From Adineta vaga (lineage: Eukaryota > Animalia > Rotifera): a stretch of 64,000 bases of DNA. Shown one piece after another: positions 14,095 through 56,377 of the stretch (positions are counted from its first letter, which is position 1; each line of letters starts with the position of its first letter). Below the pieces are notes generated by a model. The model saw only the letters and a program-made list of their open reading frames with translations, was not told the DNA's origin and ran no database searches. The position numbers and the translations under genes are program-made. The DNA lies in assembly GCA_021613535.1 (NCBI GenBank), contig CP075496.1, positions 310,001-374,000 of the forward strand, in the 5' to 3' direction.

Positions 14095-15216
14095 TCATGC
14101 AATATATCCAGCACAATTGCCTTTGCCAAGTTGACAAGCTTCTTTTGATGCATCAGATTGAATACATTTTGCTTGAGATTGATCACACGATACGACAGAA
14201 CCGATACACCATGGTAATAAGGGAAATTTTATACATTGACATGCTGCTTTAAGTGGTGCAGGAAAGGAAATTGAACAACCACCATTTTTATATTCACAAC
14301 TACATTTATTTGGTGATGATAGATTCTTTGTAGAAATAGGAATAGAAGATGAAGGATTAGCCAAAGTTAAACCCATTGAATTCGCTACGTTTTTCAATGC
14401 TGCAACTCGATTTGTCAATATTCCATGAACACCCATGTTAATATAATCTTCCATTGATGAATCCAAATCAACAGTCCATATAATAGTTAAACCATTTTCA
14501 CTTGTTGTTCTACCAGCAATACTCGCTGTAAGAGCAGAATTAAAAACTTTTGGTAAACAACCACTAGTACCAGTTGAATAGATACGATTCGTTGTTAAAC
14601 GAGAAAGCATACTTATAACATCATAATATTCATTACCTTCTTCATCAAATGTAAAAAAATAACGATCTTTATATGCTGAATTCGTTGCTGTTAGAACTGC
14701 TGCTTGAATATAATCATATGAAGCTATTTTGGCCGCTGAGATAAGAACTTTTCCTTGAAAGCCTTTAGCCATTAAATTACTATCTACAAATGGAATAATA
14801 GCTTCACCAGCTTTCTTCAGTCGACTTCCCCATGCTGGATCAACTTTCGAATCAATATACAAAAGAGCAACAGTATTCAATGTTGCAATATATTGAAGAT
14901 GATTTACAGCATCATTGCTACCTGCAGATCCGTCACATTGATCACCATCAAGAGCCTTACAGATATGATCATTGGTCAAAGCACATATACAATCACATGG
15001 AGATCCATGAGAAACAGTAGTAGGATTTCCATCATTGTTAAATCGAATATCAGTTTCAAGTGCATTAGCACCTTGTGATAATGCCCAATCTACGGCTGCT
15101 TTTGTATTTGTCATATGTGCGATAATATAGAATGGATCTTGAGTTTTGGCTGTTTGTACTACGAAGAGAATCGATAATTGTAGTGAAATCACAAGATAAA
15201 ATCTTCGATAATTCAT
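14095..15216 (-). CDS. Secreted sphingomyelinase D / SicTox-like phospholipase D with Cys-rich C-terminal domain
   Basis: Signal peptide; catalytic motifs IAHM, ALETD, HGSPCDC, IDSK, WTVD, GILTN; C-terminal ~70-aa domain with 10 Cys; intronless. Confidence 0.9.
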   Translation of the reverse strand: MNYRRFYLVISLQLSILFVVQTAKTQDPFYIIAHMTNTKAAVDWALSQGANALETDIRFNNDGNPTTVSHGSPCDCICALTNDHICKALDGDQCDGSAGSNDAVNHLQYIATLNTVALLYIDSKVDPAWGSRLKKAGEAIIPFVDSNLMAKGFQGKVLISAAKIASYDYIQAAVLTATNSAYKDRYFFTFDEEGNEYYDVISMLSRLTTNRIYSTGTSGCLPKVFNSALTASIAGRTTSENGLTIIWTVDLDSSMEDYINMGVHGILTNRVAALKNVANSMGLTLANPSSSIPISTKNLSSPNKCSCEYKNGGCSISFPAPLKAACQCIKFPLLPWCIGSVVSCDQSQAKCIQSDASKEACQLGKGNCAGYIA

Positions 15217-16254
15217 TATAATGGATTAATTAAATTTTAAACGAGAAATATAAGAAAAATATATTTCCAAGCTGAATAATCAAATTGATCTTACTTGAAT
15301 GAGTGAATGAAGGATATATATATATACAATTATATTAAACGACGACAATTATCCCACGAAAAACAAAATTATTCATCGTCAACTAATCTGCGTTTGTATT
15401 GTTAATTATAGAGATAAATGACGTTGATATTTTCATTTATTTTTAGTCATATAGGTGAATACGTATAAAAATTGTTAATAAAAAAAGGAAAATTTTGTAG
15501 AATATTACATACAGGATTAATTTATATACTTTTACTATTATTATCATCATTAAATATAAAGTTTAAAAAAATCATATCAACGTTGTAAGAAAAGACTTTA
15601 TTTTATTATTCTATTTATAGCACGAAATCGACCTTTGCATTGAACACATCAAATCGTCTTTTAGATTTTCATAATATTTCTTCTAGTTATTGTGTGGGTT
15701 CTTATTCATGACGTCATCTCATAAATATTTCATTGGATCTTCAGTTTTATGTCTAAAATGACGTGTAGGTAAGAACGAAAAAAAGAAGCGTATTTTGAAT
15801 ACAAAATCTTGTGATAGTTATTTACTAAATTCCTCATGATTGAGGGTGTGGATGTTTAAGAAAAGAAAAATACTCTCACTTCTCTTCAATGATAAAATTA
15901 GAAAGAAGATCATTCAATAGTTAATTATAGAAACAAGAAAAAATGCTTCATTTTTTGATCTATTTTCTTTCTTTTGAATAATAATTAATTACTGGAAAGC
16001 AGGAAGAACAATATGAATCTTTTTCTAATGATCTATTCTAAAAATAAATTCTTCTTTTCTCCCTGTCGTTCATTGATTCATTGAATGTTCTTAAATTACA
16101 TGTCTGTTGTCACTTTCTATCTGTTAATTTTCATGAAAATCTTTTCTCTTATCATCCCTTCAGTGCTTGTCTTAGGTATTTACGTCATTGACAAATTTAA
16201 AAATAACCTATGATTTCTTTCACATTTATTTAAAATTTCCCCGCATTATATCAA

Positions 16255-19556: not shown

Positions 19557-22520
19557 GTATTAGTTTACCTATTGTACCGTGATATAGCAGCATTTCATTT
19601 CCGTTTGCTATTGCTGAGTCTTTTTGAATGAATTTTTTAGCTTCTTCATATATTGCTTCCAATGCAGTATTCTTGATTTGTTCAACAGACACAACCTGCA
19701 CAGAATCTGGCGCATAACATGTTCGCATGCGTTGTTCTATTTGACGGTAAATATTGTCTGTTTTTGATAACGCTGTCAGTTCAGCTTTTGCTGGAGCAAC
19801 TACACACGGTGGTACAGGTATAAAAGTTTGAGTAAGTTGTGTCCATCCGCGAGTTATCATCTTCTTTGCTCTTTCGCCAACAAGTTTTCCAGCTGGTTCA
19901 TCATTAATTTCCGCCAACAAACAATAAGAACGTTTTTTAATATTATTCACAATTTTTTCTAGAGTTATGTCATATGGAGACTGAGTAATATCAATGCGCA
20001 TTCCCAAATGTCTTGTGTGATCTTTTTCCACATATAAATTATTTACATCAAAATCAATGCGTTCATAATGAATTGTGCCTACATGTGGTGTGATCAAGTC
20101 AACTATGAAAGGACCTGTCTTGGTATTTTGATCGATTACTAATACATATCGCCATTGATCTCTATGAACGCGAACTGCTATCTGTAGTTTTCCCAGTTCA
20201 GTGACGATTTCATTAACGTCAGACAAGCCATGCGTAGGCAAATAACAATCTAAATCAGCTGGAACTATTTCCGGATGTAAATGTGGTATGGATCCGTTGT
20301 ATACAATCCATTGATCCATAGGCACATTCTTAGGGTACGCTGTGTAACCTCCAACAACCCAGTCCCTTATAAATCCGCCATAAAGTTTACAATCAAATTT
20401 GCAAATCAACAACCAGGCAACAGTGAGCATTCTCTCTTCTCTACTGCCTTTCTGAATTTGTACTTGGTTGAACGGCATTTGTTTGCTATTAGCGATTTGA
20501 GTAATACGTCTTTCGATGTCTTCATAAATATTTTTTGATGCGTGTCCTGTTTTTGATGTCGGGCTAGGTACAAGTATTCTTGGTGGAAGAGCTAAAATTA
20601 AGAACAGTGTACAAATTACAAAACACTAGCAAAACGAGTTTTCATAGGAAAACATTAAAATATAGTGCTTTCTAAATAAATAAAAAATAGCAATGCAATT
20701 ATTCGATAAAGAAACAACATGGGTTCAAATATGTCAAAAATGAATAGCCTATTTGGGTTATCGGAATTTCAGCAATAAAACTTTCGCCAATCGGACATTC
20801 GCACATGGCGAAAGTCTGTACTGCGACATGCATGCTACCCTCAAGTCCACTGTCTATAGATATAGACTACAATTTTCTTGAGAATGTCGATGTGAAAATT
20901 TGTGCGTATTATTGTAACCATATATCTTTTTTTATATTCTCATTCATATCCACACTGTTGAAAGTTGAACCTATTGTTGCAATACGTTTTGCACTATTTC
21001 AAAATATTTTCTTAGGATTATTTTTACCTGCACTAATCTGAATAGCTTCGGCTTTGATGTTGAGAGATTTCTTTTTCCAATTGAGACTTGCATCGAGGTC
21101 ACCTTTCATCGCAGCCATCTGACCCAAGTCATCGTATAAATCGACAAGCAGATGATCATTTGGTGAAAGTTCATCTATCATACGCTGATAGTACTTTTCG
21201 GCTAGATCAAATTTACCCATTTTCCATAAGACTCTTCCAAATAATTGAAGTGTAGCTTTCTTATTTCCATAATCATTTTTCATGTGCTCAATGACTTCTT
21301 TTAAATCATTCTCTTGATCACTGCATAATGTTACTTGAATGTTCCAAATGCCGTTGCTTCCTTGACGAATTTTGTTAAGACGAAAAATCGAACCGAACAT
21401 GAACAACACTTCAAATTCATGTTTGAATGGACTATGAGAGGATACATTAGCAAATGGCTTGCTTGCGACATTATTTGGATTTGCCTCAATCTCAAACAAG
21501 ACTCGTTCTAGATCATGTGGAATACTACTGCCAGTCGAAAATAACAAAGCTTGTTTAGGATCGACGCTTGTAGATAGAAAAGAGTTCATCGATATGAGTT
21601 GATTTACTGACTGCTGTAAAGTTTTCAGTTCATCTTTCGACACCAACTGACCTCGATAGACGCGAATGGTATGCGAACACTGATTTTCTTTCAACTGTTG
21701 ATAAATATCACGGCAGAATGATCGAAGAAGAAAAAGTATATGGATGTCCTGTACACGAAAAGCTTTGTTTAATATTTTATACAGGAAACATTCACGAGTA
21801 TACCATTGTAATGCCTTGGTAGGCGAATAACTCTGCTCATATTCGGCTAATATGCTTAACTCCAAATCGTTTCCTTTATACTGAGTTTTACAAAGATCAA
21901 TCAACTCTTTTTTATCTTTTTCAGTAACCTTCAATCTGAGCAAGACATCCATGAGCACTTGCCAATGAACGAACTGACCATTTAGACTGACTGCTGACTT
22001 GTCTTTTTTTGTTTTATCAAAGAAAAAGATTTCGAACGACAGAAAATTTGCCAATTTCAGTCGATTCTGTTGATCAGCTGTTACTTGGGAAACAAGAACA
22101 CTTAGCTCAGTTATAACTGCTTTTACCTGAAAAAAAGTATGAAAAATTGATATCATAGATTATATGTCAAACTTTGTAGAACTTTTTAGCCCAAGTATTA
22201 TGCAAAGTTTCGTCCATACAATACACATAAATATCCGAAATTTGTGGAATATGATGAATGCGCGGTATTTCATGCTGACCCAAACTACCACTTATAATAA
22301 GTACCAGATAATAGCCTGGAGTGACCTGCTTGATATAGTTGCGAAACTCATCTGGATCATCGAATGTCTTGAGATAATTGATGGCTGCACGAAGTTTTTT
22401 CTGTGTCTCTTGATTATCCTTGGTTTTATAAACATTCAAATCTAACCAAATAAGACTAAATGCTTCAAGATTTTTGTCAGCAGTGCCAAATCCAGTTTTT
22501 GAGACAACTGACTTAGCCAT
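19400..22520 (-). CDS. Multidomain fusion: REC-like domain - mono-ADP-ribosyltransferase - TPR - class II (CCA/poly(A)-polymerase-like) nucleotidyltransferase - truncated PARP catalytic domain
   Basis: Exon 22173-22520 (LIWLD...IISGSLG...IYVYC); exon ~21028-22126 (ART motifs YRG, FLSTS, EFE, then TPRs); a phase-1 junction joins it in frame to the exon starting ~20591, which runs into ORF 19510-20478 (GGFIRD, DLD, RIDFDVNNL; then VEQIKN, LYHGT); exon ~19400-19465 (GFDKKNYRQGNWG). No downstream GxYFA exon found. Confidence 0.75.
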
Positions 22521-32141: not shown

Positions 32142-35100
32142 ATGTTAACAAAAAATACTTATGTAGAAATTGATGAATCACAAGAACGATCAAGTGATAA
32201 TGAAAATATCAATGAAAGAAATGAATTACCATCCAATTTATTAAACAAAATAGATTCTAAATTAAATGAAGAAAATAATTTCGAAAATATAGAAATGGTT
32301 GGAATTGCAAGACGATCAATCGATATAGTGGATAAAGTAATATTAAAAAATGATCGTTTAGTAGAAAATGTTTTTGAAAAATTGAAATTAACAAATTTGA
32401 ACTTATATAATAATATCGAAAGTGAAATTAGTCCAATTAAAGGATATGCTGATGAACCATTATTACCACTTTCAAAAGCATGTATTCCATTGAAAGATAT
32501 TCTTTATGATTTATCATCTTATGTTGACTTAGCATTACGAGAAACACCTGAACAACCACCAGATGAATTGACTATTGATGAAAGTGCTGCTATTCGTCTC
32601 TATACAATGGAATGGGATGCACCACATCGAAGTCTTTATTCATTACTTAATTTCAATCTAAAAACAGCTAATCATAAAGAACTTTTACCATTTTTCAAGT
32701 ATCTTAAATTATTCTTAAGTGCTCTAACTAAATTACCATGTGTTCCATCATTAACTGTTTGGCGTGGTGTTACGAAAGATTTAACTTCAGATTTTCCACC
32801 AGGTACTCGAGTAACATGGTGGTCATTTTCTTCATGTACAACTGAAATGACTGTATTAGAAAATAATATGTATTTGGGTCGTGAAGGTGATCGAACACTT
32901 TTCTCTGTTGAAGCTATCAATGGTCGATGTATACGTGATCATTCACATTTTGTTACTGAAGATGAAATTCTTCTTCTTCCTGGTACTCATATGATTGTTC
33001 AATCACAACTTAGTCCAGCATCAAATCTTTATATTATTCATTTGAAACAAGTTAAACCTGATATAGAATTATTAGAATTACCATTCGAAGGTATTTTTCA
33101 AAATTATATTCAGTAATTATTTTGATTATCTTGATTATATTTTTAGGTGCACATCTTTTTCCAAAAGAAATGTAAGTCAATTAGTTTTTATATTGTTTAT
33201 TTAATACAAAAAAAAAATTGTCTATTATTTTCTAAGACATCCTTGGTATTGGAAGAAAAGATTTACAATTCCAATCGTTTTTTTAATTATTTTATTTATT
33301 GGTGGTATTATTCTTGGTGCTGTTCTTGGAACACGAAAATCATCTCCTATGAATAGTAAAATTTGTTGTTAGATAGATCTTCTATTATATTCAACTGAAT
33401 ATTATTTATTTTAGTAATATCATGTACTAATCCATTGGAATCATTTGATTATATTAAAGTTGGACAATATCCATCTTCGATCGTATTAGGTCATTTTAGA
33501 AACAATAGTTATCTTGATGCAGCAATAACAATTGCTAATGAAAATGCTGTGATTGTACTTCTAGGTGAACCTACTGAAATTCTTCGTACTTCAAAGATTA
33601 CGACTGGCGAACAACCAATGTTTATTATAGCGACTGATTTTAATAATGATACAATAATAGATATAGCAATTGTTAACAATGGTGATGATACTGTTATTGT
33701 ATTATTAGGTGTAGGAAATGGACTTTTTCAAGATAAAAAAGTCTATCGAGTAGATACTTCACCATCTTGTCTTATATCAGCTGATTTTAATAATGACAGC
33801 AAATTGGATTTAGCCATAGTGAGTCAAGACAGTAATATTGTTAATGTGCTACTTGGTGATGGACAGGGAGCCTTTCAAAGTTCATTTAATAATTCAGTTG
33901 GTTATTTTCCATCATTTATAATATCCGTTGATTTTAATCATGATAACAAATTAGATTTGGTAGTTAGCAATACTTTTGATAATACTATTAGTGTATTGAT
34001 TGGTTATGGTGATGGAAATTTCCAAACGCACATGACATATTCTACTGGCTTGTATCCAACATGTTTGGTATCAGCTGATTTTAATAATGATAATAATTTA
34101 GATATAGCAGTAACTAATAGTAAAAATAATACAGTCAGTATTTTACTTGGCATAGGAAACGGAAGTTTTCATAGTCATCTCGAATATGTAACGGGTTCGT
34201 ATCCTTTGTCTATTGGATCAGGTGATTTTGATAATGATAAAAATACAGATTTGGCAATAACCAATAGTGAAGAAAATACCATTAGTGTCTTATTCGGTTA
34301 TGGAAATGGTACATTTAAAGATCAAATTAAATATGGAACTGGTAGCTATCCTGTTTATTTGATGGTCGATGATTTCAACGACGATGGTAGCACAGATTTA
34401 GCAGTACTTAATAATGAGGACAATACTGCTAGTATGTTTTTTGGTCTAGGCAATGGTACCTTGAAGTTTATACAATCGTTTAGTACTGGTAATTCTCCAA
34501 AATCATTCGCTGTCGCTGATTATAATAATGACAAAAAATTAGATTTTGCAGTAGTTGAACAAACTGATAATACCGTTAGTGTATTTCTTGGCGAAGGACG
34601 TGGAAATTTTCAAATTGCGCTCAAATATACTACGGAAAAATATCCATCATCTATTATCTCCGCCGATTTCGATAATGATAATAAACAGGATTTAGTCATT
34701 ACTAATAGTGAAGTAGATACTGTTAGTATACTTTACGGAGTTGGTGATGGATTTTTTCGATCTCCCATAAGCGTTACTGTTGGTAGTTTTCCAACTTCTG
34801 TAACATCGTTTGATCTTAATAAAGATGGATACATAGATTTAGCTGTAGCAAACAAAGGCGATAATACCATTCGGATATTTTTTAATACGGCCAATCAAAC
34901 GTTTACGATGTTTTTAAATTATACAATTGGTAATTGGCCATCTTCTATCATATCAGCTGATTTTAATCAAGATGGAAATATAGATTTAGCAGTGACTAGT
35001 AGAGATGATAATATTGTTAGTGTAATGCTTAATAATGGTAATGGTATTTTTCTTACTTCAGTTAATTATACAGTTGGTAAATCACCATCATGTGTTCTAT

Positions 35101-35489
35101 CAATAGATGTTAATAAAGACACATATGATGATTTAATAGTTACTAATTATGGTCATAATACTATTAGTATATTACTTAACGATCGAAATGGAACATTTTC
35201 TAATAGAAATACTTTTACAGTTGGTAGATATCCATCTTCTGTAGTAGCATCTGATTTTAATAACGATCAATATACGGATTTAGCAGTTGCTAACAGTGGT
35301 AGTAATAGCGTAAGTTTATTGTTAGGTAATGGTGATGGTACATTTCAATCTCAAATTAAATATACTACTGGAATCTTTCCAACTTCTATTAAAACAGGCG
35401 ATTTAAATAACGACCAAAGACCAGATCTTATTGTAACAAATGGCAAATCGAACGATGCATATATTTTTTTGAACAAATGTAAAAACTAA
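32142..35489 (+). CDS. Receptor-like type II membrane protein: N-terminal arginine-type mono-ADP-ribosyltransferase - TM - ~13 FG-GAP/VCBS repeats
   Basis: Exons 32142-33090, 33147-33171, 33237-33355 and 33415-35489 join in frame (phases 1, 2, 1); ART triad WRG / FSSCT / EDE; TM WKKRF-TIPIVFLIILFIGGIILGAVLG; FG-GAP repeats DFNxDxxxDLAV. Confidence 0.88.
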
Positions 35490-35718: not shown

Positions 35719-36948
35719 TTAAGGTAAATTCCATTCACTTTTAGAATCACGACGACGACTTAAACCAGCATTTGTTTTTGGTAGAATGTAATTGTAGTTA
35801 TACTTTTTTCCTTTGTTCAAACGACCATAAGTCTTTACTCCTTTGCTACAAGTTAACCCAAAATTTGTATAGCCTTTTTTGCATTGTTTTAAACAATCTT
35901 CGGATGCTTCATCGTCACCTGCTAAACATTCCGATTGATAACAACCAGCACTTGATACTGCATAGGTTGGACTTCCTTCACAAGCACGTGAATGTGTTGA
36001 ATCAAATGGATTCTTTTGAGTTGGATGAGTGCTAATACCACTTGGACCCCAAGAAAAACCTCCCGTCTTATCAGCAGCCAACCAAGCTTCATCACTACCT
36101 TCAAGATCAATTAATTTCTTCGAAGTATCCATATAATCGGAGTCTGATTTTGGATCACGAAAATCAGCATAATAAGCACAATTACCAACACCTTTTGGAC
36201 CAACCGTATTGGTATCATGATAAGAACCATGAGCAATCTTTCCAACATAAACAATTGGACGATCTCCAGTAGTTTTGAAGCCATGAGAACCAGCACACCG
36301 TCCAGTACCAGAAGGAGTACAAGGAGCTTTACGTGGTCCCGAGATACGAGTGTAATGACCATCGTGCTGAAAAAAGCTAACGGCAGCCACTTTAGTCTTA
36401 TCTTCGGTAAGAATTACCATAATATGTTCCCAATCACCATTATGTTTACCTTCACTTGACCAACATGGATGTTGATATCCATAAAACCACCAATATACAA
36501 TACGCATTTGATTTCCATCAGTACGAACCATATAATATGTTGGAATTGTACCAGCACTTAGTGTACTTTTATCTGTATTTTCTTTTCTGAATGATGATGA
36601 ACTATCATTCATATAAGCTTCATAATAAACTTGAGCTGACATTGGATATCCTTCTGTAGCACGATCAAAACGAAGTTGAGGAGCAAATTTTGCTGCATAC
36701 GTATAACTATCAGTAGTTCGTTTCTCTTGTTCTTCATCAGAATTATCATTTTCGCTTTCCGTAATATATCGACTCATTTTGACAACGTTTTCAAGATCCA
36801 ATAATCGACGAACATATTGAAATTCTCCTTCTGAATTTTCTTCCGACTGAATATTCATCGATTGTACTACCAAAAGTTGCCATGCGAAAATACACACCAC
36901 GATTAACATCAATGTATTCTTTTGAAGATTTCTTTTTAATAAAAACAT
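35719..36948 (-). CDS. Secreted Vps62/NPP1-like domain protein with acidic propeptide and Cys-rich tail
   Basis: Signal peptide, acidic pro-region ending in EKR, FAPQLRF, YWWFYGY, HNGDWEH, HGSY motifs and C..GY...GL.C; the true start may be the second Met. Confidence 0.75.
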   Translation of the reverse strand: MFLLKRNLQKNTLMLIVVCIFAWQLLVVQSMNIQSEENSEGEFQYVRRLLDLENVVKMSRYITESENDNSDEEQEKRTTDSYTYAAKFAPQLRFDRATEGYPMSAQVYYEAYMNDSSSSFRKENTDKSTLSAGTIPTYYMVRTDGNQMRIVYWWFYGYQHPCWSSEGKHNGDWEHIMVILTEDKTKVAAVSFFQHDGHYTRISGPRKAPCTPSGTGRCAGSHGFKTTGDRPIVYVGKIAHGSYHDTNTVGPKGVGNCAYYADFRDPKSDSDYMDTSKKLIDLEGSDEAWLAADKTGGFSWGPSGISTHPTQKNPFDSTHSRACEGSPTYAVSSAGCYQSECLAGDDEASEDCLKQCKKGYTNFGLTCSKGVKTYGRLNKGKKYNYNYILPKTNAGLSRRRDSKSEWNLP

Positions 36949-37599
36949 ATTTTAAATACTTCTTACCTGAGAAATAAAAATCCAATAAATAGAATACTAT
37001 TTTTCTTCTATTAATGAATGAGATATTTACTTTCTCCTTGCTTGAAATATACATACAAATAAAAGCATATCAATACTCTATATATAATCCTGATCGTTTA
37101 TTACGATTCTTATTGATCATGATCAAAATAACATAACAAGTTAATTTTTATCATATTTTCGCGTAGGAAAATCACAATTTAAGAAAGTATTTTAGAGGAC
37201 GTTTTTATTGATATATTACTACATATATAAAATATTACTGTTCAAGGACACATATATATCCTTACGTTTCATGCAGTTTGATTTGAAAAAGAACAACCTT
37301 CTATTTTTGTTTCTAATAATATATGTTAAATACACGAGTGATTCAGTATACAAAAAAATATATAAGATTTGTCAGGGATTTTCGATCCTATTATTTCTTC
37401 ATATAATCGATAAAGGTAAATAAAAATATTAAAACGTAATATATAAATACGTAAAAGAAAAATAGATCAGTCATTGAGAATGACATTGAATTTAATGATC
37501 TATTTCTTCCTAAGAAAAAGATGAAAGTTTTGATATCTTTGACAATGTTATATTAACGAATATAAAATGAGTAGATCGTTGCTTAAAACATAAGAAAAA

Positions 37600-37995: not shown

Positions 37996-39048
37996 TTAAG
38001 GAGTATCTAGAAAATGACGAATAACATTCATAGTTTTCTCGTGTTCTTCGACGTGTGGCATATGACTACTTTCATTGAATAAAACCTGTTGGACACTATT
38101 GTTGATCCGTTCACGATAGGGTATTTGAGTACGAGGTGTTGCTTCATCATACCGACCAGAATAAGTAAGAGTCGGTACTTCGATAAGATGTAATCGATCG
38201 ATAATACTCCAATTTTTCAATGAACCAGTAACATAAAATTCAGAAGGACCCCACATTGTTAGATACACCGTTGGATCAAGCATATATTGTGCGACACTAG
38301 CTTTGCATTCTGCTGGCAAGGGATCGACTCGACAAACATATTGATTATTAAAAATACGCATGGCTTCCTGATATTCATCACTCGTTGTTGTGTCCGCTTG
38401 TTCATGTTTTAATAATGCTTGTTGCACTTCAGGAGGGAGTTGATCTCTCAATAAATTGACCTCTGTTACTCCAAGAGGTAGATCTGATGGACTACTAGCC
38501 AGAATAAGACGTCGCAAACCAGATGGTTGTCGTACTGCATATTCACAAGCCAACATACCACCCCATGATTGACCAAGTAAATCATAACAAGAAGAAATGT
38601 TTAGATATGAAAGAAGATTGTCCAACTCTTCTAAGAAGAGTGAAATTGTCCAATATTCTGGTGTAACTTCTGGTAAATGTGTGGATAATCCACATCCTAT
38701 TTGATCATAATGAATCACTGCTCTTTTATCTGAAGCTAAAGCTTTAAAACTGTCCGTATAATTATGTGCCATGCCTGGTCCTCCATGAAGAATAACTAAA
38801 GGTGGAACATCATCATTTAAGTTGCCTGTAATACGGTACCAAGTTTTATAATTTCGAAATGGAGCATATCCTTCAACCTAAATACGAAAAAAATATTAAG
38901 AAAAAAACAATCAATTCTAATATTCTATGAGTTTATTCTTTTTCTTCTTCTTCTTCTTGTATCAATTCAATATGTCTATTTTACATGATACTAAAAATCG
39001 ATAGATAATAATGTAAGAAACATTTCCATATACCTTAGAGATGATCAT
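37996..39048 (-). CDS. pip: Proline iminopeptidase / proline-specific peptidase (alpha/beta hydrolase, S33), bacterial-type, with one intron
   Basis: Exon 39034-39048 (MIISK) + exon 37996-38877; HGGPG, YDQIGCG, GQSWGG nucleophile, GRYDE, SSHMPH. Confidence 0.88.
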
Positions 39049-39782
39049 TGATATATAAATATCAATGATAGAATTGATTTACTTCTCTTCACAAAAAACG
39101 CATCAAGTATTATTTTTGCATACGAGTCGACCGACGAGTAGGACCGTTATTTTGTTCTGTGTTCTTCTTCTTCTTGCTTTTATGCACACACGTTATCGCA
39201 ACTATTCGACTTTACATACTAAAGCTGTACACGCCATAGAATAATAATGCACTCTTTTTTTATTCTGGAACAAAGGTTAACGGATAACAAAGGTCATGAT
39301 GCACTACAATAAACGCGAAAAAATGAAATAAGCTAAGACTGGCGACATAATCGCGTTACGTCGCGTATTCCTCATCAGGAAACACGATATCTATACAGAT
39401 TATTCATTTCTTTCTTACCAATAACAATCTCGAGAGAGAGAGAGAGTACCTTTTATACGATGAATAATATTTGCAAAAATTGAGAGATTTGAATAATTTT
39501 GAGGTAGTATCCAATGAATAATGATATTCCGATAGATGGATATATCGTCAGAACATCTAGACTATGATAAGTTTATGTTTTTAATTTCCAAAATCGTATT
39601 TTTCAAGTCCATCCTACTCTCACTTGCTGCTTATACAGTCTACTGATAAATCGTATTTTCGTCGTTCTCGTCTATTGTTTACATTTTTTTCCTTTCTTTC
39701 TCCACTTTAACCACGTGTTAAAGTATTTCGAGGAATTTTTTTTTAATTATTCCTCATTTTTTGGAATTTAAAAGCCATTCCT

Positions 39783-41502
39783 ATGGCTTCTAATTCTAAT
39801 TCTAAATTTAATCATCTTAATGATGGTAAAATTTGTGAACAATCTGATTGTAATCATGGTTTTTGTCGTGAATCTCGTAAAAAGTCTTCCACAATATCTA
39901 AAAATGTTTCAAATGTTAATTTGGATAATGTTCATGTTGCTGGTGTCGATTTTGAATCACTTGGTGCTAATCCTGATCTTGGTTTAAATTCTTCTTCTAT
40001 TGATTATCATCTTATTAATTCTTCAAGTTCCTCGGTACGTCGTCCACTTTCAGTAGATGTCGCCGATGGTTTTCTTACTGTTTCTTATAAGAAACATTCA
40101 AGACGTGATTCGAAAGAAATTTCTGTGCACGGAAATTCTGTTAATGCTGGTGTTTCAGCTGTTGGTAATGATGTTAATATTATTGGTGATAATTTATCCA
40201 ATGGTCCTATTGTTTCTCAACAGTTTATAATTACTAATGAATCAACTCGTTATGCTCAATCCCGTTATCCTTTTGCTCCATTTATTCTTCTTTTTAAATC
40301 TGATAAATTTACGATGAACCAAATCAAAGAAGAATTAATTAAGCATTGTAAAACGGTACATCAATTTGATATTGATATATTAAATTGTCGATTATTTAGT
40401 TCAAATGCTTCTGGTGGTAATTATAATGTTCATTTTTATGTTAAAGATGTTCTTTCCTTTTCATTTTTATTAAAAACTGATCATTGGCCTAATGTTCTAG
40501 GTGATGAATCTTTTTTGATTCAATCATTTCCTTCAATTCCACCTCAATTAAGTTTACTGATGAAAAACGTTGATTTGAATATTAACTTCGATGAATTTAC
40601 TGACATGATTAAAAATAAATTTCCGGATGTTAAAAATGTTATTAGATTAAAAAATAAAATGCAAAATGATATTAAATTGGTCAAATTAGAATTAACTTGT
40701 GCTTCTACTCGGGATAAAATTTTGAATGATCGTCGTATTCTTATAAATCATTTGTCTTATGATGTTGTAGAATACTTAGCACCTGCTAATGTTCTCATTT
40801 GTTCAAAATGTATGGCGATTGGGCATTTTAAGAAACAGTGTACTCAAACTAAAGAAACTTGTAGGACATGTGGTGAACAGGTGGATAATTTAAAAAATCA
40901 TACATGTTCTCAAGTAGAAAAATGTATTCATTGTCATTCTAATCACAAGTCAACCTCGCTTAAATGTCCTGTGGTGAAAGCATTTCGTGCGGAATTAACA
41001 AAGAAATTACTAAATACAAATAATGTTACTGCACCTGCTAGTTATGCAGGTGTTTTATTACAAAATCATACTAATGTTCCATCACAGCATCCAAATGTTA
41101 ATGCAAATAATTCTATGTTAAAGAAACTCGATGATTTAATGAATACTATGACAGAAATGAAGAAGCAGTTGGATAATTTACAAGATAAACAAAGTACAAT
41201 TGAGCAAGTCTTATTAGCTAAACAACAAGGTGATGACCTTATCATGTTAAATGTGAATGAAATTTCTTCCGCTCAAAAAGATTTCAAGAAGGATTTGGTT
41301 CATCATAGTGTTTTTATTGATCGTCATGAAAATATGCTTATTAAATTATTATTACCAATGTTTCAAGATTTATTCTTATTTTTATCTTCTTTAAATCAAG
41401 ATAAAAAAAGGAAACACACTTGATGCTGATCTGAAGTGTAAATTGGATCGTTATGGTATACAAGTGAAAAAAGCTATTGAAGGTAAACAATTCACAAACT
41501 AA
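39783..41502 (+). CDS. LINE ORF1 (gag-like, three Cys/His zinc knuckles, coiled coil); one +1 frameshift in an A-run at ~41403-41409
   Basis: CSKCMAIGHFKKQC, CRTCG..H.C, CIHCHSNH..C; removing one A extends the ORF to TAA at 41500-41502. Confidence 0.88.
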
Positions 41503-44502
41503 TGTCTCTGTCTCGTTACTCTACTCCTTTTTTCTCTTGTATCTCCTCCTCCAATCTTTGTAGACGTGATGATATGTTATCTAAAGCGAAAGCTACTTTG
41601 TCGCGTTTTGATTTCAATCTTTTTTCCTCTATTCTTAATGAATGGGAAGGAAGTTTAACTCTTGCTTCTTGTTTTTCTAAATGGAAATTGTTTGTAACAA
41701 AATGTTCGCTTTCTTCTTCTTCTAGTTTTTCCTCTCTCCTTATATTATCTTTCAATGTTAGAGGCCTTGGTCTAAGATGGAATGAAGTTCTTCTTTTAAT
41801 TTCTTCTTCTAATCCTGATATAGTAATTCTTCTTGAAACTGGCAACTTAGAAATTTCCTTTTACGAAAAGATCTTCAATAACTTTAAGATGTTTTTCCAG
41901 GAAGGAGAAAACGGTCATGGTGGTGTTTTGATTTTAGTTAAAAGTGATATTCATGTTGTTCGTGTCATCTGTAACGTTCCCAATGTTTGTATCGTTGATA
42001 TTAAAGGTATTGATACATTACGTGTTTTAGGTGTGTATGCACCTGATAGTAAAACTTGGAATTGGCATGATCTATCTTCCTATTTATCAAAAAAATGTGT
42101 TGTATTCGGAGATTATAATGTTGATCTTTTGCAGGACAAACAAAAAACTGATGTTCTTCTTGATTGGGCTGATAGTAATTTTCTTTCTCCTATTTTTACT
42201 GATGAGCCCACTTCTACAAGGTCGGATCGGGTTATTGATTATGTGTTCACTAATTGTTCTAATGTCAAAATTCAAACATATCGTAAGACATCAAGTGATC
42301 ATGTTCCGATCCTTTCTGTTATTCCTTTTAAAAAGGATCAACATCGTGTTGGTAAAAATGTTCGTTGGAAGGTATTTTCTCTGTTTACAGAATTTACTTA
42401 TCCTTTTTGGGAGAAATTATGGAATGTCGATAATCTTGATGTTTTATATAATGATTATAGCAAGTTTTTGTTTCTTCTTTTTTCTCGTTGCACGATTGTT
42501 TTTTCATGTGATAAATATCGTCCTTCTATTCCTATAGAAATCAGATCATTTCTGTCATATATTCGAGCACTTTCTTTTCAACAGATGAGAACAAAAAATT
42601 CTGATTTAAAAAGTGTGATTAATTCGCTTCGAAAAATTGCTAAAAATGAACTTAGAAATTTTTTTTCCTCTAATCTTTCTTCTCATCTTCACTTTCGTAA
42701 TTCCTCTACTTCTGCTTCCAATTTTGTTTTGGAGTAGAACTAAAAGGCATCTTAAACCTTCCTCTTCTTCTATTCATGGACTTATTGATTCTTCAGGAAG
42801 TGTTTCTAATGATACTAAAACCATGTGTGAAATTGCAGCTGATTATTTTGAATCTTTTTTTAGTACTTCCGATATTTGTAGACCTCATCCTTATACAGAT
42901 TCTCCACCTATTAATTTTGATAATACCGATGAACAGATTCCTGAAGTAACTCTTGATGAATTGCTTCTTATTATTAAAAATAAACGTAAAAAGAAGTCTA
43001 TTGATGCAAATGGTCTTAGTAATTATATGTTTGATTTTGTTGATGTTAATTATTGGTCGTTATTTCTTAAATTGTTTAACCACTCTTTTCAAAAGGCTGT
43101 TCTTCCTGTTGGTTGGAAAAATACTCGTATGATTTTACTTGCTAAAAAGGATTCGATTTGTTCTCCTTCACTTACTAGACCTATTTCGCTTATTGATTCT
43201 TTTCTTAAGGTTGGTGAAAGATTATTTCTCAATAGATTTCGTGATGTTCTGATTCGAAGGGGTTTACTACCTGACAATCAGTCTGGATTCCGTGAAAATT
43301 TTCGATTACAAACACGGTTGTTGTTGTTTTTAGAAGATATCTATAGTATTTTCTCAAATAGTGAACCGATTTGTACTATATTTATTGATCTAAAGTCAGC
43401 CTTTGATCAAATTTGGCACAGTGGATGTATAGGTAAACTTAAACAACTTGGTATTCCTTCTTCATATTTAAATTGGATTGATGTTTGGCTTCGTAATAGG
43501 AAATGTTTTATTGATTTTAATGGGTGTCATTCTCGTTTGTTTTCGATTGGTAAAGGTGGACCTCAAGGAAGTGTATTAACTCCTACTTTGTTTATTACTT
43601 ATCATTGTGATATGAGTCAGTTTCTTTCTGGTTGTACTAGTCATTTCTTTGCTGATGATGTTGCCGCAGTTCTTGCTGGTCAACTAGGAATTCGATTTAC
43701 AGATCAATGTTTAGATCTTGAGAAACGGGTTAAATCTTTTCTTGATTGTTTAGAATTTTATACTTTATTAACTGATCAATCATTAAATAGAAATAAAACT
43801 GAAGCTTTATTTAGTGCTAGAGCGATTGGAAACCCAAAGTTTACTATTTCATTTGATAATGATGGAAATGATCAAGTTAAATGGGTAAAAGAATATAAAT
43901 ATCTTGGTTATATTATTTCATCTAAACTTGGTTGGACTAAATTAATTAAATTTACTGAATGTAAACTGCGAAAAAGAATAGCTCTTATTCGCTCTTTTAA
44001 ACTTTTCGGTTGTTCTTCTCCTCGTCTTCGTAAAGTTTTATTTTACTCTCATGTTCTTCCTATTTTCACTTGGATTTATCCTATTTTTCCGTTACTTACT
44101 CGTAAACAACAAGAAAATATGTCTAAATTTTACTATACTTCTCTGCGTCGCACCCTTAATTGTCTTTGTTGGAATGAATTGTTTTTTGCACACATACTTG
44201 ATGAATTATCTCTTGAAGATCGGTGCTCGGCCTATTGGAATCGTTATTTGTTTGCGTTATCTAATTCAATTGATGGTTATCTCATTTTCGAAAAAGCAAA
44301 CTTATGTGAGTTCAGAAAAAGCTGGTTAGATAAAGAATTTCCAATTAGTTGCTTAAGAAGATCTAAAAGATTTGTTCCTCAACTATCAATTCTTGAAAAA
44401 GTAGTTTCTTGGCTCTCTTCTGTTCCTCAAAACTCTTCAGTTTATCATTATGATTTACAAGAAATTGGACTTCTACAATCATTTCCTGATTCTTTCTGCT
44501 AA
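41502..44502 (+). CDS. LINE ORF2: APE endonuclease + reverse transcriptase; +1 frameshift at ~42722-42725
   Basis: APE motifs SFNVRGL, LLET, GDYN, IDY, SDH; RT motifs RPISL, QSGFR, DLKSAFD, PQGSVL, FADD, YKYLG. Confidence 0.92.
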
Positions 44503-49358: not shown

Positions 49359-49794
49359 TACACTTATATTGATATATTTAATTAATTTCAATTACAGCTA
49401 AATATTTCTCAGTGTAACACATTTAACATCTTTAATTGTGTAATACAATTTATTTCTTACTCTTTATTTTTTATTATTACATAACTTATTTTAATTCAGA
49501 AAATTGTTCGAAATGGAAATAAATTTCTTATTTAATTAATCATTAACATATGATTCAAATCTCAGTTCAATAAAAGTCTCATATAAACTGCTCATATTGA
49601 TAATTTCATAAATATAGAGAGTTTTTTTTTATAGAGAATTACTTTGTTTTAGTAGATAATTCAACAAAGTCATGCGAAGTTTAATGTATAGCTGTTAAAT
49701 TACTCGATATATATAATCACAAAAAAAACATTTGTATAACATCAAATACTAAGACATCAGTATAATCCAATGAAATAATACAAGATATTCACGT

Positions 49795-50799
49795 TTAGAT
49801 ATGTTCTACTCTTCGTCTTACGTTAATCGAATGAGCGCCAGTATTTATCTGTTCTGGTTCTAGTCGTTTTATGGTTTTCAAGACCATTTGTTTGATTTCC
49901 TGTCGAAAGGGTTTAGATATCGCCAAGTAAATGTAGAAAGTAATACAATAATTTAAATAAAATAAGATAATAAGTGCCAAAAACGACATGAATGATTCGA
50001 TTGCAATACGATCTGCACTTTTATTCAACAGATTACTTGTCAAAATGGAATATAACGTACTAATTGGATATAAAGTTGTAAGAAGTATACCGAGAATAAT
50101 TTCAGTTAAGATGAGTTTGATCAAAGTAATATCATGTCTAGTTAGAATATTCTGTGGTATGCTGTCAGTTGCTGGCATAGGTTGTATACGAACACGAACC
50201 AATTTCAAATTCTTTACAATTAAGAAACTGAAAAATATTTGAGAAATTGGTAAAATAACTCCAAAAATACACACTTGATAGATGCTGAAGAAAAATCCGT
50301 ATGTTCCACTCGGCAAGCATCGATTATTCAGAATAGTCTGATTGATCGGTAAATGTATTGAAATGAGCAGACCAAAGAGAATAAATCCACCAATCATTTT
50401 AAGTGCAAATTTAGGTTTACTAAAAGCACGTATACCTGCTCTAGGCGATGTTAATGCAAAACGATCGACACATCCCAATAAAATCATACATTTATAAAGT
50501 AGTGATGAAGTTTGGAGAATATAACCTCGAAAACGGCAAAGAAAAAGAGATTGAATAAATGGATCTGGTGGTTGATAAAGAGCATACATATTACTACCAA
50601 TTCCCCAGTTAATACCAATAATACTAAATACAGCAGCAGCAAGTAAATACAATGAACACGGATTTCGTCGATGTTTTTTTCGACAAAAGACGACAATGAT
50701 GAAGAAATTACCGATGTTACCCAATGTCAAAGAAACAGGAAATCCATAACGAATAATCGTTTGTTGTGCAAATACAAGTGAAGAAGAAAGAGAAGACAT
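49795..50799 (-). CDS. Rhodopsin-class GPCR, copy A
   Basis: 7 TM; GNxxN, NPCSLYL, CRFR, VDRF, SKPFR; ATG at 50799. Confidence 0.9.
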   Translation of the reverse strand: MSSLSSSLVFAQQTIIRYGFPVSLTLGNIGNFFIIVVFCRKKHRRNPCSLYLLAAAVFSIIGINWGIGSNMYALYQPPDPFIQSLFLCRFRGYILQTSSLLYKCMILLGCVDRFALTSPRAGIRAFSKPKFALKMIGGFILFGLLISIHLPINQTILNNRCLPSGTYGFFFSIYQVCIFGVILPISQIFFSFLIVKNLKLVRVRIQPMPATDSIPQNILTRHDITLIKLILTEIILGILLTTLYPISTLYSILTSNLLNKSADRIAIESFMSFLALIILFYLNYCITFYIYLAISKPFRQEIKQMVLKTIKRLEPEQINTGAHSINVRRRVEHI

Positions 50800-52705
50800 A
50801 ATTTTGATAGATCTTAATGAATAGATATTGTACAATTCGTATTTTATCTCTTCTCCTCTGTTTATCTATAAAATATATAAACATGTACACATTGAAAAGA
50901 AAAGAATAAAAGTCAAGGCTATCGAGATCATAGTGATAACTGACGAGATGTTTTTTTAAAAGAGATATAATAATGCAGAATGATAGTGAACTAATAAAAA
51001 GTAACATTTAGTAACATAAGAGAAATGTACAAAGTATTTTCTAATCTGTCAACAAAGTTTTATCTACAATTCACTTTTTATTTTTGATGCATTTCCAATG
51101 GAATAATCTGTCGTTGAAAAGTGCTTTCATTTAATAAAATTGGAATATAATTTCTTGATGACGACAATATCTAACAAAAAGAATGTTAATCATTCTAAAT
51201 CTTATGAAAAAGTACATGAAAAATTTAGTTTTTAGATAAAAAGAGGTTAATATACTTTTGAAAAGGCTATTTGAGAGATTCTCGTAAATCTATATAAGTT
51301 ATTAATTGAAAAATGTAAAAAATTTATATAATATCTTATCAAAATAATATAGATTCGAAAATGAAATTATCTATAAAAAATAATTGAAAATAAAGTCCAG
51401 CTAATTGTATCGTTGAGATATTATTATATCTTATAAGAAAGTTTCAGTCTTATTTTATTTCTAAATATGATAACAAATGTTATATTTATCTTATATTTGA
51501 ACAATTAACTATTTTCAATGTACATATAATGTCTTGAGAAAAAACTGAAGAGATTATATTATTTACTTGTTCTATAAAAGATATTCTTTTTAAAATTTAT
51601 TATAGTAATACAGCTGTGATATTTTTGAGTTTATTCTCAAGAGAAGAACACGATTGAATTCTATATTATATATTAGAACTTATAAAATACCATGTCTAAC
51701 TAATTTTTTTCAAAAGAAAAGTAAATTTGACTAAAGTAAATCATGATCAAATATACTTTCACGATTAATGAGAAGAAATTTTCTTTCTGACAACTTTTTT
51801 TACTGTTAATAAATTAATCTATTTTATTTCTTTCATTTTTGACGTTTTTCAAATATGTTTTCTGTAGGTGAGTTACTGAATTAGATAATAAAAAAAACTT
51901 TCACAAGTTGTAAACATACTTAGATACGTCAAAAGATATAATTTGAATTCTAATATCAGAGATTCATTTGTAAATGACAAGTTATATATACTTAACTATA
52001 GTTACTTTATTTAGATTTTGTTTTTGAGTAAAACCAATTTTTAATCAAGTATTTGTAAAGTACTATATTCTTTAACAAGTATTTTTCTCGAGCATATATA
52101 ATTATAAGAGATTTAATCAACATTTCTATATTTTATCTAAACTCAAGAAAAAGATTACAATAAGCTTAAAAAATAAAAGAGTTGACGTGATGAAATTATC
52201 AGTAAGAAATAAGTACAAAAATTAAATGTCATTTCTATTCCTGAAAGAAAGGATTATTGATACTAAGAAAAATTTCTTTTCGTTCATTCCTTCAAAGTCA
52301 ATCAAATTACAGCTGTACCCTTACGCATATCATTGAAAATATCGTTTTTGTAGAATATTGTTGATATACAAACACTCTTGTGTACTGTCAATTGTTTTTC
52401 GTTATAATCTCTTTATTAGTATCATTTGGAAAAGATTTAACGATGTTTACATCTTTTTACAATTGTTTTATAAGAAACAATATCGTATAAATTTATTCTA
52501 ATACAAAATGTTAGGCAATGTTCATTGAATTAAACTGATAGTATCAAATATTTTATTGATACTTGATGTTTTAGAAAAATAGTTTTTAAATTCAATTTCA
52601 ATAAGATATGAAAGATTGATAAGAATCGAAAATAAAGTGAGATGAATAAATGATCAATATCAGGGTGTGGGTGAAGGTATCTCTTTCGATTCGATCATAT
52701 CCTAC

Positions 52706-53693: not shown

Positions 53694-55010
53694 AAATAAA
53701 TTAATTGTTTATAGAGAAATAATTCTATAGAGATGTTTGAAATAAATATTTACACGAGAAAAACCTCTTGTGTGTGATGATTTCTAAATACGACACAAAA
53801 TATTAATAAAAAAGAATGAACACATTGCTTTGTACAACCTTTTTCCTTTTGTCTGGAACATTTATGTCGTTGAAACAGCGTCTTTTTGCGTTGTACAATC
53901 GATACAAAAATGGGTAATAAACTTTAGTTTATTTCATTCTGTGCGAAATTTAGTAACGGATGCATATGATATTTAAGGTGTGGATGTAGTTGATGAATAT
54001 TTCGTATAAGCTTTAACACACATAACACTAAAATATAATGACTAAGTATGTATATATAAACAGATATGAGTAGATAAGGATGTGAGTGTGCATCTATGTT
54101 TTCTTGATTTGAGATGAAATCCAGCTCTACACTTATTTTCACATTTATCAACTTGAGAGAAAAGACTAGTAATGAGTACTGCTCCGATCGAAATGAAATT
54201 ACACGTATTGCATGATCTCGAAAATAGTTAATTACTCGAATGTAGGAGAAAAAAACATAATTGAACCTTCATTATAAGACATAAAAATAGCTGTATGATA
54301 CAAATAGAGATAATTTGTTTTCTATTACGTTTATTTTAATGAGAGAAAATGTTAGTCTTTTGAGTCTTTCAATTATCATATATATTAGCTCGTTTTACAA
54401 AAATGCTTTAACACTTTTTTTTGAAAACTAAGTTTTTGTATGTTTTTATATTTTTAGTTGATTGTCGTAGCCAAGGAAATACACTCCAATGCTATTGGAT
54501 AAAGTTATATTTCAAAAAAATCAATCTAATCATGTAAACATCAAAAACAAATACCGAACTATATAATTATAATTTGAAAGATAATGCCTTACATATACGA
54601 AAATAACTTTCATCTAGTAATATACTGGTTGATACCATAGGAAGTAAAAGTTTTTCGACAGAATGAAGCGAATAAATTTTAGATATTTCTCATATCATTA
54701 AATGTGTTTTGTTGGTTACCATAGTTCAAAAACTTGATTATTTTATTTTCTCATTTTAATAGATTATAACGCAAAACTATGATTTATTATTCTTGTAGTG
54801 ATCAATTCGAGGTCATCCGCTTACGTTATTCTCTATGATTTCTTTATCTTTTCTTTAACCACCTCGTCAGTTATCACTGTGATTTCGATAGCCTTGACTT
54901 TTATTCTTTTCTTTTCAATGTGTACATGTTTATATATTTTATAGATAAACAGAGGAGAAGAGATAAAATACGAATTGTACAATATCTATTCATTAAGATC
55001 TATCAAAATT

Positions 55011-56015
55011 ATGTCTTCTCTTTCTTCTTCACTTGTATTTGCACAACAAACGATTATTCGTTATGGATTTCCTGTTTCTTTGACATTGGGTAACATCGGT
55101 AATTTCTTCATCATTGTCGTCTTTTGTCGAAAAAAACATCGACGAAATCCGTGTTCATTGTATTTACTTGCTGCTGCTGTATTTAGTATTATTGGTATTA
55201 ACTGGGGAATTGGTAGTAATATGTATGCTCTTTATCAACCACCAGATCCATTTATTCAATCTCTTTTTCTTTGTCGTTTTCGAGGTTATATTCTCCAAAC
55301 TTCATCACTACTTTATAAATGTATGATTTTATTAGGATGTGTCGATCGTTTTGCCTTAACATCACCTAGAGCAGGTATACGTGCTTTTAGTAAACCCAAA
55401 TTTGCACTTAAAATGATTGGTGGATTTATTCTCTTTGGTCTGCTCATTTCAATACATTTACCGATCAATCAGACTATTCTGAATAATCGATGCTTGCCGA
55501 GTGGAACATACGGATTTTTCTTCAGCATCTATCAAGTGTGTATTTTTGGAGTTATTTTACCAATTTCTCAAATATTTTTCAGTTTCTTAATTGTAAAGAA
55601 TTTGAAATTGGTTCGTGTTCGTATACAACCTATGCCAGCAACTGACAGCATACCACAGAATATTCTAACTAGACATGATATTACTTTGATCAAACTCATC
55701 TTAACTGAAATTATTCTCGGTATACTTCTTACAACTTTATATCCAATTAGTTTGTTATATTCCATTTTGACAAGTAATCTGTTGAATAAAAGTACAGATC
55801 GTATTGCAATCGAATCATTCATGTCCTTTTTGGCACTTATTATCTTATTTTATTTAAATTATTGTATTACGTTCTACATTTACTTGGCGATATCTAAACC
55901 CTTTCGACAGGAAATCAAACAGATGATCTTGAAAATCATAAAATGGCTAGAACCAGAACAGATAGATACTGTTGCTCATTCAATTAACGTAAGACGAAGA
56001 GTAGAACATATCTAA
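55011..56015 (+). CDS. Rhodopsin-class GPCR, copy B
   Basis: Differs from copy A by 7 aa, all in the C-terminal ~90 residues. Confidence 0.9.
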   Translation: MSSLSSSLVFAQQTIIRYGFPVSLTLGNIGNFFIIVVFCRKKHRRNPCSLYLLAAAVFSIIGINWGIGSNMYALYQPPDPFIQSLFLCRFRGYILQTSSLLYKCMILLGCVDRFALTSPRAGIRAFSKPKFALKMIGGFILFGLLISIHLPINQTILNNRCLPSGTYGFFFSIYQVCIFGVILPISQIFFSFLIVKNLKLVRVRIQPMPATDSIPQNILTRHDITLIKLILTEIILGILLTTLYPISLLYSILTSNLLNKSTDRIAIESFMSFLALIILFYLNYCITFYIYLAISKPFRQEIKQMILKIIKWLEPEQIDTVAHSINVRRRVEHI

Positions 56016-56377
56016 ATGTAAATATCTTGTATTATTTCATTGAATTATACTGATGTCTTAGTATTTGATGTTGTACAAATGTTTTCTTGTGATTATATAT
56101 ATCGAGTAATTTAACAGCTATATATTAAACTTCGCATGACTTTGTTGAGTTGTCTACTAAAACAAAGTAATTCTCTATAAAAAAAACTCTTTATATTTAT
56201 GAAATTATCAATATGAGCAGTTTATAGTCCATTGTCAATGGTAGAATTAATAATGATCTAAATATATATTTATGTTTATCCTTTATTTCATATAAACTAT
56301 GTTAATTTCTTCAATATTAAAAAAAAGCAGTTTTAGAATTGAATAAAGAAATGTAAATGTTCATATAATTGATTGTT

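Follow-up and report, generated by a model that had tools for sequence, protein, structure and literature searches.

Animal enzyme-coupled receptors signal via kinases, phosphatases or cyclases. In the bacterial proteins PknB and PknD, an N-terminal cytosolic kinase is followed by one helix and a C-terminal extracellular repeat or propeller sensor, and the enzyme is activated by dimerisation. Integrin alpha chains are type I proteins with one N-terminal seven-bladed FG-GAP propeller, leg domains and a short tail. Among the ADP-ribosyltransferases (ARTs), an ExE motif is tied to arginine specificity, and the human enzyme PARP16 has a short tail. In the portion of the source available to us, human ARTCs are described as glycosylphosphatidylinositol (GPI)-anchored or secreted, with the enzyme luminal or outside the cell, and PARP16 as the only membrane PARP whose ART domain lies in the cytosol (PMC10789625). 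Here we analysed a 64,000-nucleotide stretch from the bdelloid rotifer Adineta vaga (the window; GenBank assembly GCA_021613535.1, contig CP075496.1, positions 310,001 to 374,000 of the forward strand), in which a gene at 32142-35489 on the + strand joins an ARTC domain through one predicted transmembrane (TM) helix to an array of FG-GAP repeats. An earlier note on this DNA had proposed a receptor with a cytosolic ART and an extracellular FG-GAP part, a layout it did not know as a characterised class; as a whole, that interpretation is partly supported. We likewise found no description of bdelloid ARTCs or of ART-helix-ectodomain proteins in the accessible literature, most subscription papers lying outside the search.

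The gene encodes a 1055-aa open frame assembled from four exons (32142-33090, 33147-33171, 33237-33355 and 33415-35489), which are separated by three short GT..AG introns with an A+T content of 81-86%. Exon 1 contains the start codon, an N-terminal extension of about 95 aa and the ART domain, and ends in phase 1. Intron 1 (33091-33146; 56 nt, phase 1) is followed by a 25-nt micro-exon encoding the GAHLFPKE linker, and intron 2 (33172-33236; 65 nt, phase 2) by the 119-nt exon 3, which encodes the basic juxtamembrane motif WYWKKR and the helix (33262-33333) and again ends in phase 1. Beyond intron 3 (33356-33414; 59 nt, phase 1), exon 4 encodes the repeats, of FG-GAP/VCBS type (Pfam FG-GAP_3, 7e-90), and the stop codon. 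Because 779 combinations of GT..AG introns (at most three introns) likewise yield an open frame, the frame alone is no proof of splicing, and we rejected frame-joining as such evidence. The junctions were instead tested on public contigs from eight sequencing runs (X1, X2, X3, X5, X6, X11, X12 and X14). All three introns were absent from contigs of X1, X2, X11 and X12, introns 1 and 2 were skipped in X3 contigs and introns 1 and 3 in X6 contigs, in each case at the GT..AG boundaries. Three studies produced these six runs, and none of them is recorded as RNA, the sample type being guessed or unlabelled. X14 retained the introns and covered upstream flanking DNA, and therefore serves as a DNA control; X5 contigs did not cover the junctions.

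The contigs show neither strand nor level, and none of them covers the gene in full. One 2415-nt X11 contig is spliced and extends from position 32982, across the two small exons, to 35576, past the stop codon; in one X6 contig, 32692-33088, where every catalytic codon lies, is joined to the 25-nt exon. In addition, an X11 contig that begins at 32111 contains an in-frame stop three codons upstream of the ATG; the N-terminus is therefore complete and no signal-peptide exon is missing. The ART and FG-GAP parts belong to one spliced gene and transcript, as the earlier note had proposed when it joined two separately listed open reading frames through two small exons and suggested a check of the three junctions.

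The N-terminal extension (residues 1-95) is of low complexity, acidic and Asn-rich, and differs in length and sequence among relatives. Residues 96-316 (32427-33089) matched Pfam ART above the cut-off (1.3e-09) and contain the motifs WRG at 207, FSSCT at 229 and EDE at 273. The catalytic codons lie at 32763-65 (R208), 32832-34 (S231) and 32958-66 (E273 and E275), and these four residues were invariant in all 66 aligned rows, which bears out the note's statement that the R-S-E triad of ARTCs (R208, S231, E275) and the ExE motif of arginine-specific ARTCs (E273-D-E275) are intact. The AlphaFold2 model of the domain had a predicted local distance difference test score (pLDDT) of 90.8. Its best fold match was rat ART2.2 (1GXY; Z 18.2, root mean square deviation 3.3, 210 aligned residues), followed by HopU1 (Z 17.3), 6DRH (Z 16.8) and then XopAI and ExoS, with 21 chains reaching Z>=8; the nearest folds are those of arginine-type ARTCs. 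Since the model matched pertussis toxin at a Z of just 2.2 and groups with ART2.2, HopU1 and ExoS (Z 14.5-18.2), the description of the domain as cholera-toxin-like is valid only in the broad ARTC sense. When solved structures were searched by sequence with the ART domain alone, no useful match emerged, and a profile search was swamped by leucine-rich repeat (LRR) columns, with ART2.2 at an E-value of 0.005. By its residues and predicted fold the domain is an intact ARTC (R-S-E), for which transfer to arginine is predicted.

The vertebrate ecto-ARTs (ARTC1-5; 1GXY; PF01129) share with this domain the R-S-E triad with ExE and the best-matching fold, and are likewise animal membrane-bound mono-ARTs. 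They differ in having a signal peptide together with a GPI anchor or secretion, whereas the window protein has an internal TM helix followed by 698 aa, a predicted cytosolic enzyme, a large variable C-terminal part and only 13% identity to them. The bacterial arginine-ART effectors (HopU1, 3U0J; the 6DRH toxin; XopAI; ExoS/T; Vis) have a common fold with the domain (Z 13.3-17.3) but are delivered toxins with 16-25% identity, whereas the window gene is an intron-containing animal gene. The bacterial effectors HopU1, ExoS and Vis among the fold neighbours, together with a MACPF domain in one soluble relative, would suit a defensive or digestive toxin, displayed or shed, whose outer part attaches to the cell of a microbe or predator, with the ART as the weapon that is delivered. 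We consider this very improbable, given that the protein has no signal peptide, that the helix stands between enzyme and binding part, that neither a translocation domain nor a conserved cleavage site was observed and that the top fold match is vertebrate ART2.2.

The nearest bacterial sequences found were four actinobacterial records with 33-34% identity over 93-95% of the ART domain. These proteins (WP_251091506.1) share the WRGV/WWxxSSC/ExE motifs with the window ART; they differ in being soluble, with a C-terminal ART, no helix and, in the two read, a macrodomain in or beside the gene. Their middle part, on which Pfam made no call, we take by a motif to resemble uracil-DNA glycosylase. This part matches the description of 'UDG-L' in the part of that source available to us (PMC13689562). 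Searches of prokaryote genomes yielded three weak loci (29-33% identity), viral contigs gave 94 pattern matches, none of them confirmed, and phages gave no match. AACRNL, of H-Y-Y type and with the word 'transmembrane' absent from the available text (PMC12957317), was set aside as a different system, as was TeTIR.

The 1055-aa protein has a single hydropathy peak, corresponding to a helix of 24 uncharged residues (334-357); the note's single hydrophobic helix stands, and its length of about 20 aa does not. A 17-residue linker ending in WYWKKR leads into the helix, which contains a G348-G352-G356 zipper. Helices and signal peptides were called by simple hydropathy, which detected neither a signal peptide nor a hydrophobic N-terminus in the window protein, with its complete 5' end, and no N-terminal hydrophobic peptide in any of the 38 TM-bearing proteins or in 144 further representatives. 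The protein has the form of a type II single-pass protein, with one internal signal-anchor and no signal peptide, and because it also has a 333-residue N-terminal part the helix is most likely a type II anchor. Across the 38 TM-bearing proteins, 36 have more K/R on the ART side of the helix and 31 have a net charge that favours an N-in orientation, and the C-terminal parts beyond the helix include typical extracellular modules, namely PAN (18 Cys in 266-268 aa), a Cys-rich repeat (76 Cys), LamG and LCCL. The most likely topology is type II, which puts the enzyme in the cytosol and leaves the C-terminal part outside the cell or in an organelle lumen, in line with the N-in prediction of the note. 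Its comparison with receptor kinases holds for the succession of enzyme, helix and outer part, but the type II order, with the enzyme N-terminal, is the reverse of that in animal receptor kinases. The orientation is like that of PknB and PknD, which differ in their kinase output and bacterial origin, and the likeness is one of layout. PARP16 (ARTD15) shares the single helix and the ART on the cytoplasmic side, and differs in belonging to the ARTD/PARP class, not R-S-E, and in having no large exchangeable outer domain.

An opposite topology, with the ART as an ecto-enzyme and the propellers on the cytosolic side, would match the vertebrate ARTCs, which are luminal or extracellular in the available part of the source (PMC10789625). 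The helix of the window protein has basic residues on both flanks (K/R 4 before versus 2 after), and sequons are uninformative. The window protein has none before the helix (2.8 expected) and 12 after it (13.9 expected), and the family has 121 versus 84 expected before and 323 versus 203 expected after, so that the two sides are not distinguished; after this comparison with composition we rejected the asymmetry of 0 versus 12 as proof of topology. The opposite arrangement would nevertheless require translocation of a 333-residue N-terminal part without a signal peptide, and the positive-inside bias in 36/38 proteins, the C-terminal position of the disulfide-type PAN and Cys-rich parts and the cytosolic partners of the soluble sister ARTs all argue against it, making it the least probable of the readings that we weighed.

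C-terminal to the helix, the window protein contains 14 FG-GAP repeats with a spacing of 48-49 aa, so that the array named in the note is present and its count of about 13 needs correction. The FG-GAP part was modelled as all-beta (pLDDT 88.8, predicted template modelling score 0.56) with a low-confidence hinge at its midpoint, which suggests two seven-bladed propellers, and the 14 repeats probably form this pair. A fold search with the propeller model found only generic multi-propeller proteins (TM-score ~0.35), and the nearest relatives of the repeats were rotifer and bacterial FG-GAP/VCBS arrays (29-41% identity). The 14 uniform 49-aa repeats at the C-terminus set the protein apart from integrin alpha chains. 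A second FG-GAP array in the window (1332-2426) lies behind frames resembling one multi-exon membrane protein gene (1332-8326, - strand).

A search for longer homologues returned 68 proteins, and all 58 that carried an organism name came from bdelloid rotifers. The ART, the same basic motif and the helix were present together in 35 of the 68, followed by LamG (20 proteins), FG-GAP (7), peroxidase (3), PAN (2), LCCL (1), NHL (1) or a Cys-rich part with no Pfam match (1). ART-TM-X proteins, for which the note had called for a genome-wide count, do exist as a family, and these homologues show a conserved enzyme combined with seven kinds of variable, binding-type C-terminal part. The ART-linker-helix cassette and its invariant active site are kept across Adineta and Rotaria species, and an Atlas cluster of 138 members, most commonly from Rotifera, combines ART with FG-GAP. 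Database entries of Adineta and Rotaria named 'NAD(P)(+)--arginine ADP-ribosyltransferase' belong to the same family, some with ART and FG-GAP, under names that are automatic. The wider family comprises 3311 representatives at E<=0.001 and 415 at 1e-30; a helix followed the ART in 11 of 144 new representatives among the best 150. By sequence, the window gene is a member of a modular bdelloid ART-helix-X family. Several observations concern single members. ART-haem peroxidase fusions occur with or without the helix (P0008, P0017, P0020, P0025 and P0340, from four named Rotaria taxa). A close homologue labelled Sphagnum balticum (P0083) is probably rotifer DNA in a moss assembly. Exons 2 and 3 add up to 144 nt, a length that permits their skipping without loss of frame, and the helix-free gene models P0003, P0005, P0173 and P0025-27 may be real skips or annotation errors. 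A search for near homologues gave mainly exon-1 products ending in intron 1 (113 of 120 lack the helix); these were rejected as soluble forms, being gene-calling stubs.

We also compared exon layouts at metagenome loci, 20 of which were found and 19 examined (L013 ends inside the ART). The same 25-nt micro-exon and helix exon were present in 13 of the 19. Two of the remaining loci were too short, one had its helix exon farther along, ahead of a LamG frame, and L010-L012 were three copies of one gene with a frameshifted helix exon, the presence of which led us to reject them as helix-free fusions. In all 12 loci examined for it, a phase-1 donor lies 110-131 nt into the helix exon. We infer that the phase-1 junction at intron 3 is the site of outer-domain exchange in the family.

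A tree of 66 ART domains, built by a quick method with Shimodaira-Hasegawa-like approximate likelihood ratio test (SH-aLRT) support only, placed all 36 helix-bearing rows in one 45-row clade that was named after the tree was seen (SH-aLRT 96, or 95 with two bacterial outgroup rows, which are long and compositionally odd). On this tree, the helix-bearing ARTs are one clade inside a larger family with soluble members. The 34 labelled rows require 10 or more switches of outer domain (minimum 6), and a single clade for the 17 LamG rows was rejected (approximately unbiased test, p 0.0003). Such mobility might also arise as a by-product of exon shuffling, in which an expanded, promiscuous ART exon came to lie before phase-1 helix and repeat exons, mostly with no coupled function. 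The number of copies would favour this, with 431 genes of A. vaga and 366 of A. ricciae under the arginine-ART gene ontology (GO) term in the supplement as available to us (PMC11258130) and the 3311 representatives of the wider family, as would the phase-1 symmetry, the frameshifted copy L010-L012 and the expansion of repeat families, FG-GAP included, in the part of the A. vaga study that we could consult (PMC3846280). We regard this origin as improbable, since the cassette and its invariant active site are kept across Adineta and Rotaria, the 138-member Atlas cluster has the ART with FG-GAP, and splicing is seen in three studies.

The receptor-like reading of the window protein is likely from its sequence, and we considered how such a receptor might be switched. 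The helix is conserved towards its C-terminal end, where 89% of 37 rows have G at the last position, and variable over its N-terminal half; GxxxG occurs in 33/38 helices versus 7.8 in shuffles. A homodimer prediction for the homologue P0127 (residues 146-417) scored 0.32, with the best control at 0.00, contact agreement between runs of at least 55% and pLDDT of at least 83. The mark used for dimers was reached by 21/30 solved pairs and 0/23 single chains from microbes, and by 17/29 solved pairs (7/16 from animals) and 0/30 single chains from eukaryotes. The columns of the predicted interface showed a greater gain in conservation in TM-bearing ARTs, relative to soluble ones, than random columns (p 0.002). 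The GxxxG motifs and the borderline dimer prediction are consistent with switching by clustering. In the mechanism that we propose, the 14 FG-GAP repeats would bind a ligand outside the cell or in the lumen, ligand binding would cluster the helices, and clustering would turn on the ADP-ribosylation of arginine in a cytosolic target. The protein may help to sense microbes or surfaces, its ART putatively serving as the effector that is also joined, in soluble relatives, to LRR, NACHT and other immune-type domains. That the protein is a clustering-gated, cytosol-facing arginine ART in a single-pass membrane protein has, in our judgement, an even chance of being correct.

Besides the flanking charges and sequons, several findings weigh against this mechanism. 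The GxxxG count does not represent 38 independent events because the 38 helices are kin. The dimer score lies exactly at the mark and was obtained for a homologue folded without an alignment, its confident contacts are between the ART domains and not in the helix, and within the TM clade the interface columns are no more conserved than average (p 0.13). In the 45-row clade, the ART is not followed by a helix in 9 rows, and fusions of the ART to HSP70, PDZ, PfkB and hAT pieces also occur, from which it follows that the ART is a promiscuous domain. Following fungal attack, the arginine-ART term is listed in three 'down' sheets of the available supplement and not in any 'up' sheet (Nowell et al. 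2024, PMC11258130). Finally, 3 of 34 proteins examined are of type II helix-FG-GAP form with no ART, and the peroxidase outer part (3/35) is an enzyme and not an obvious ligand binder. The last two findings also favour the main rival, in which the ART is tethered to the membrane but ungated, being cytosolic and constitutive or controlled from inside, with an outer part that merely positions the enzyme. The ART-less proteins suggest that the outer part has its own job, the same topology evidence applies, and human PARP16 offers a precedent as a membrane-anchored cytosolic ART in the accessible part of its source (PMC10789625). We hold such a tether to be unlikely, though a serious contender, since the fixed 17-residue linker, the conserved micro-exon, the conserved GxxxG and the repeated exchange of binding-type outer domains suit transmembrane coupling.

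Two domain scans of soluble relatives (22 and 33 proteins) revealed fusions of the ART to LRR, NACHT-HEAT, ankyrin, NHL, ADP-ribosylglycohydrolase, PDZ, HSP70, PfkB, AIG1 GTPase, MACPF, PBZ and MLKL-kinase domains. Among these are P0047, P0055, P0066-P0068, P0426, P0441 and P0454, which include ADP-ribosylglycohydrolase (writer plus eraser), NACHT-HEAT (NLR-like), MACPF, MLKL-kinase and AIG1 partners. The clustering-gated protein might belong to a bdelloid receptor class with dozens of interchangeable ectodomains, ligand-driven dimerisation and one cytosolic ADP-ribosylation output, in which a bacterial-type arginine ART replaces the kinase, and which, with soluble LRR/NACHT-ART sensors and ART-hydrolase fusions as its partners, would make up an entire immune signalling system; we offer this broader proposal tentatively and think it somewhat more doubtful than not. 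With regard to infection, the three 'down' sheets hold 6, 19 and 8 arginine-ART genes (false discovery rates 4e-5, 1e-12 and 0.02) in the available supplement, of which file 14, taken as Supplementary Data 3, reports GO enrichment among foreign-gene candidates; the word 'ribosyl' is absent from the main text as available (PMC11258130). The ART family responds to infection, downward, a result at the level of the family and not of the window gene. Of the genetics of rotifer immunity, 'virtually nothing is currently known' in the words of the section available to us (10.1101/2021.09.04.458992), and expansions of FG-GAP, NHL, Kelch and LRR proteins in A. vaga were linked by their authors to defence and signalling in the accessible text (PMC3846280). 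If the family does place a cytosolic ARTC behind swappable outer domains, it would bring ADP-ribosylation to the list of receptor outputs. The family also offers a way into rotifer immunity and into the question why these genomes carry ~400 arginine-ART genes, and its modular single-junction design makes gating testable directly with chimeras.

Two further ART-type frames lie in the window, one at 20999-22159 (- strand; ADPrib_exo_Tox-like with TPRs) and one at 59779-60840 (+ strand; Pfam ART 5e-08), and a tblastn search with the window ART found neither of them. Around the ART-FG-GAP gene, the N-terminus of the convergent neighbour at 35719-36951 (- strand) is signal-like, its NPP1 match is weak and falls below the cut-off (E 0.0023), and an X1 contig on this neighbour extends back to 34314, inside the FG-GAP exon. 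Upstream, an X12 contig at 30853-31115 skips 110 nt with CT..AC ends, a minus-strand intron of an upstream transcript. The frames at 14095-15225 (- strand; GDPD family with a Cys-rich tail) and 37996-38877 (- strand; alpha/beta-hydrolase) are long single open frames. Judged by eye, 39747-44502 (+ strand) is a non-LTR retrotransposon with Gag-like, endonuclease-like and reverse-transcriptase-like frames, and an inverted duplicate (49582-50953, - strand, and 54857-56226, + strand; 97.6% identical) carries a 356-aa frame resembling a seven-helix receptor.

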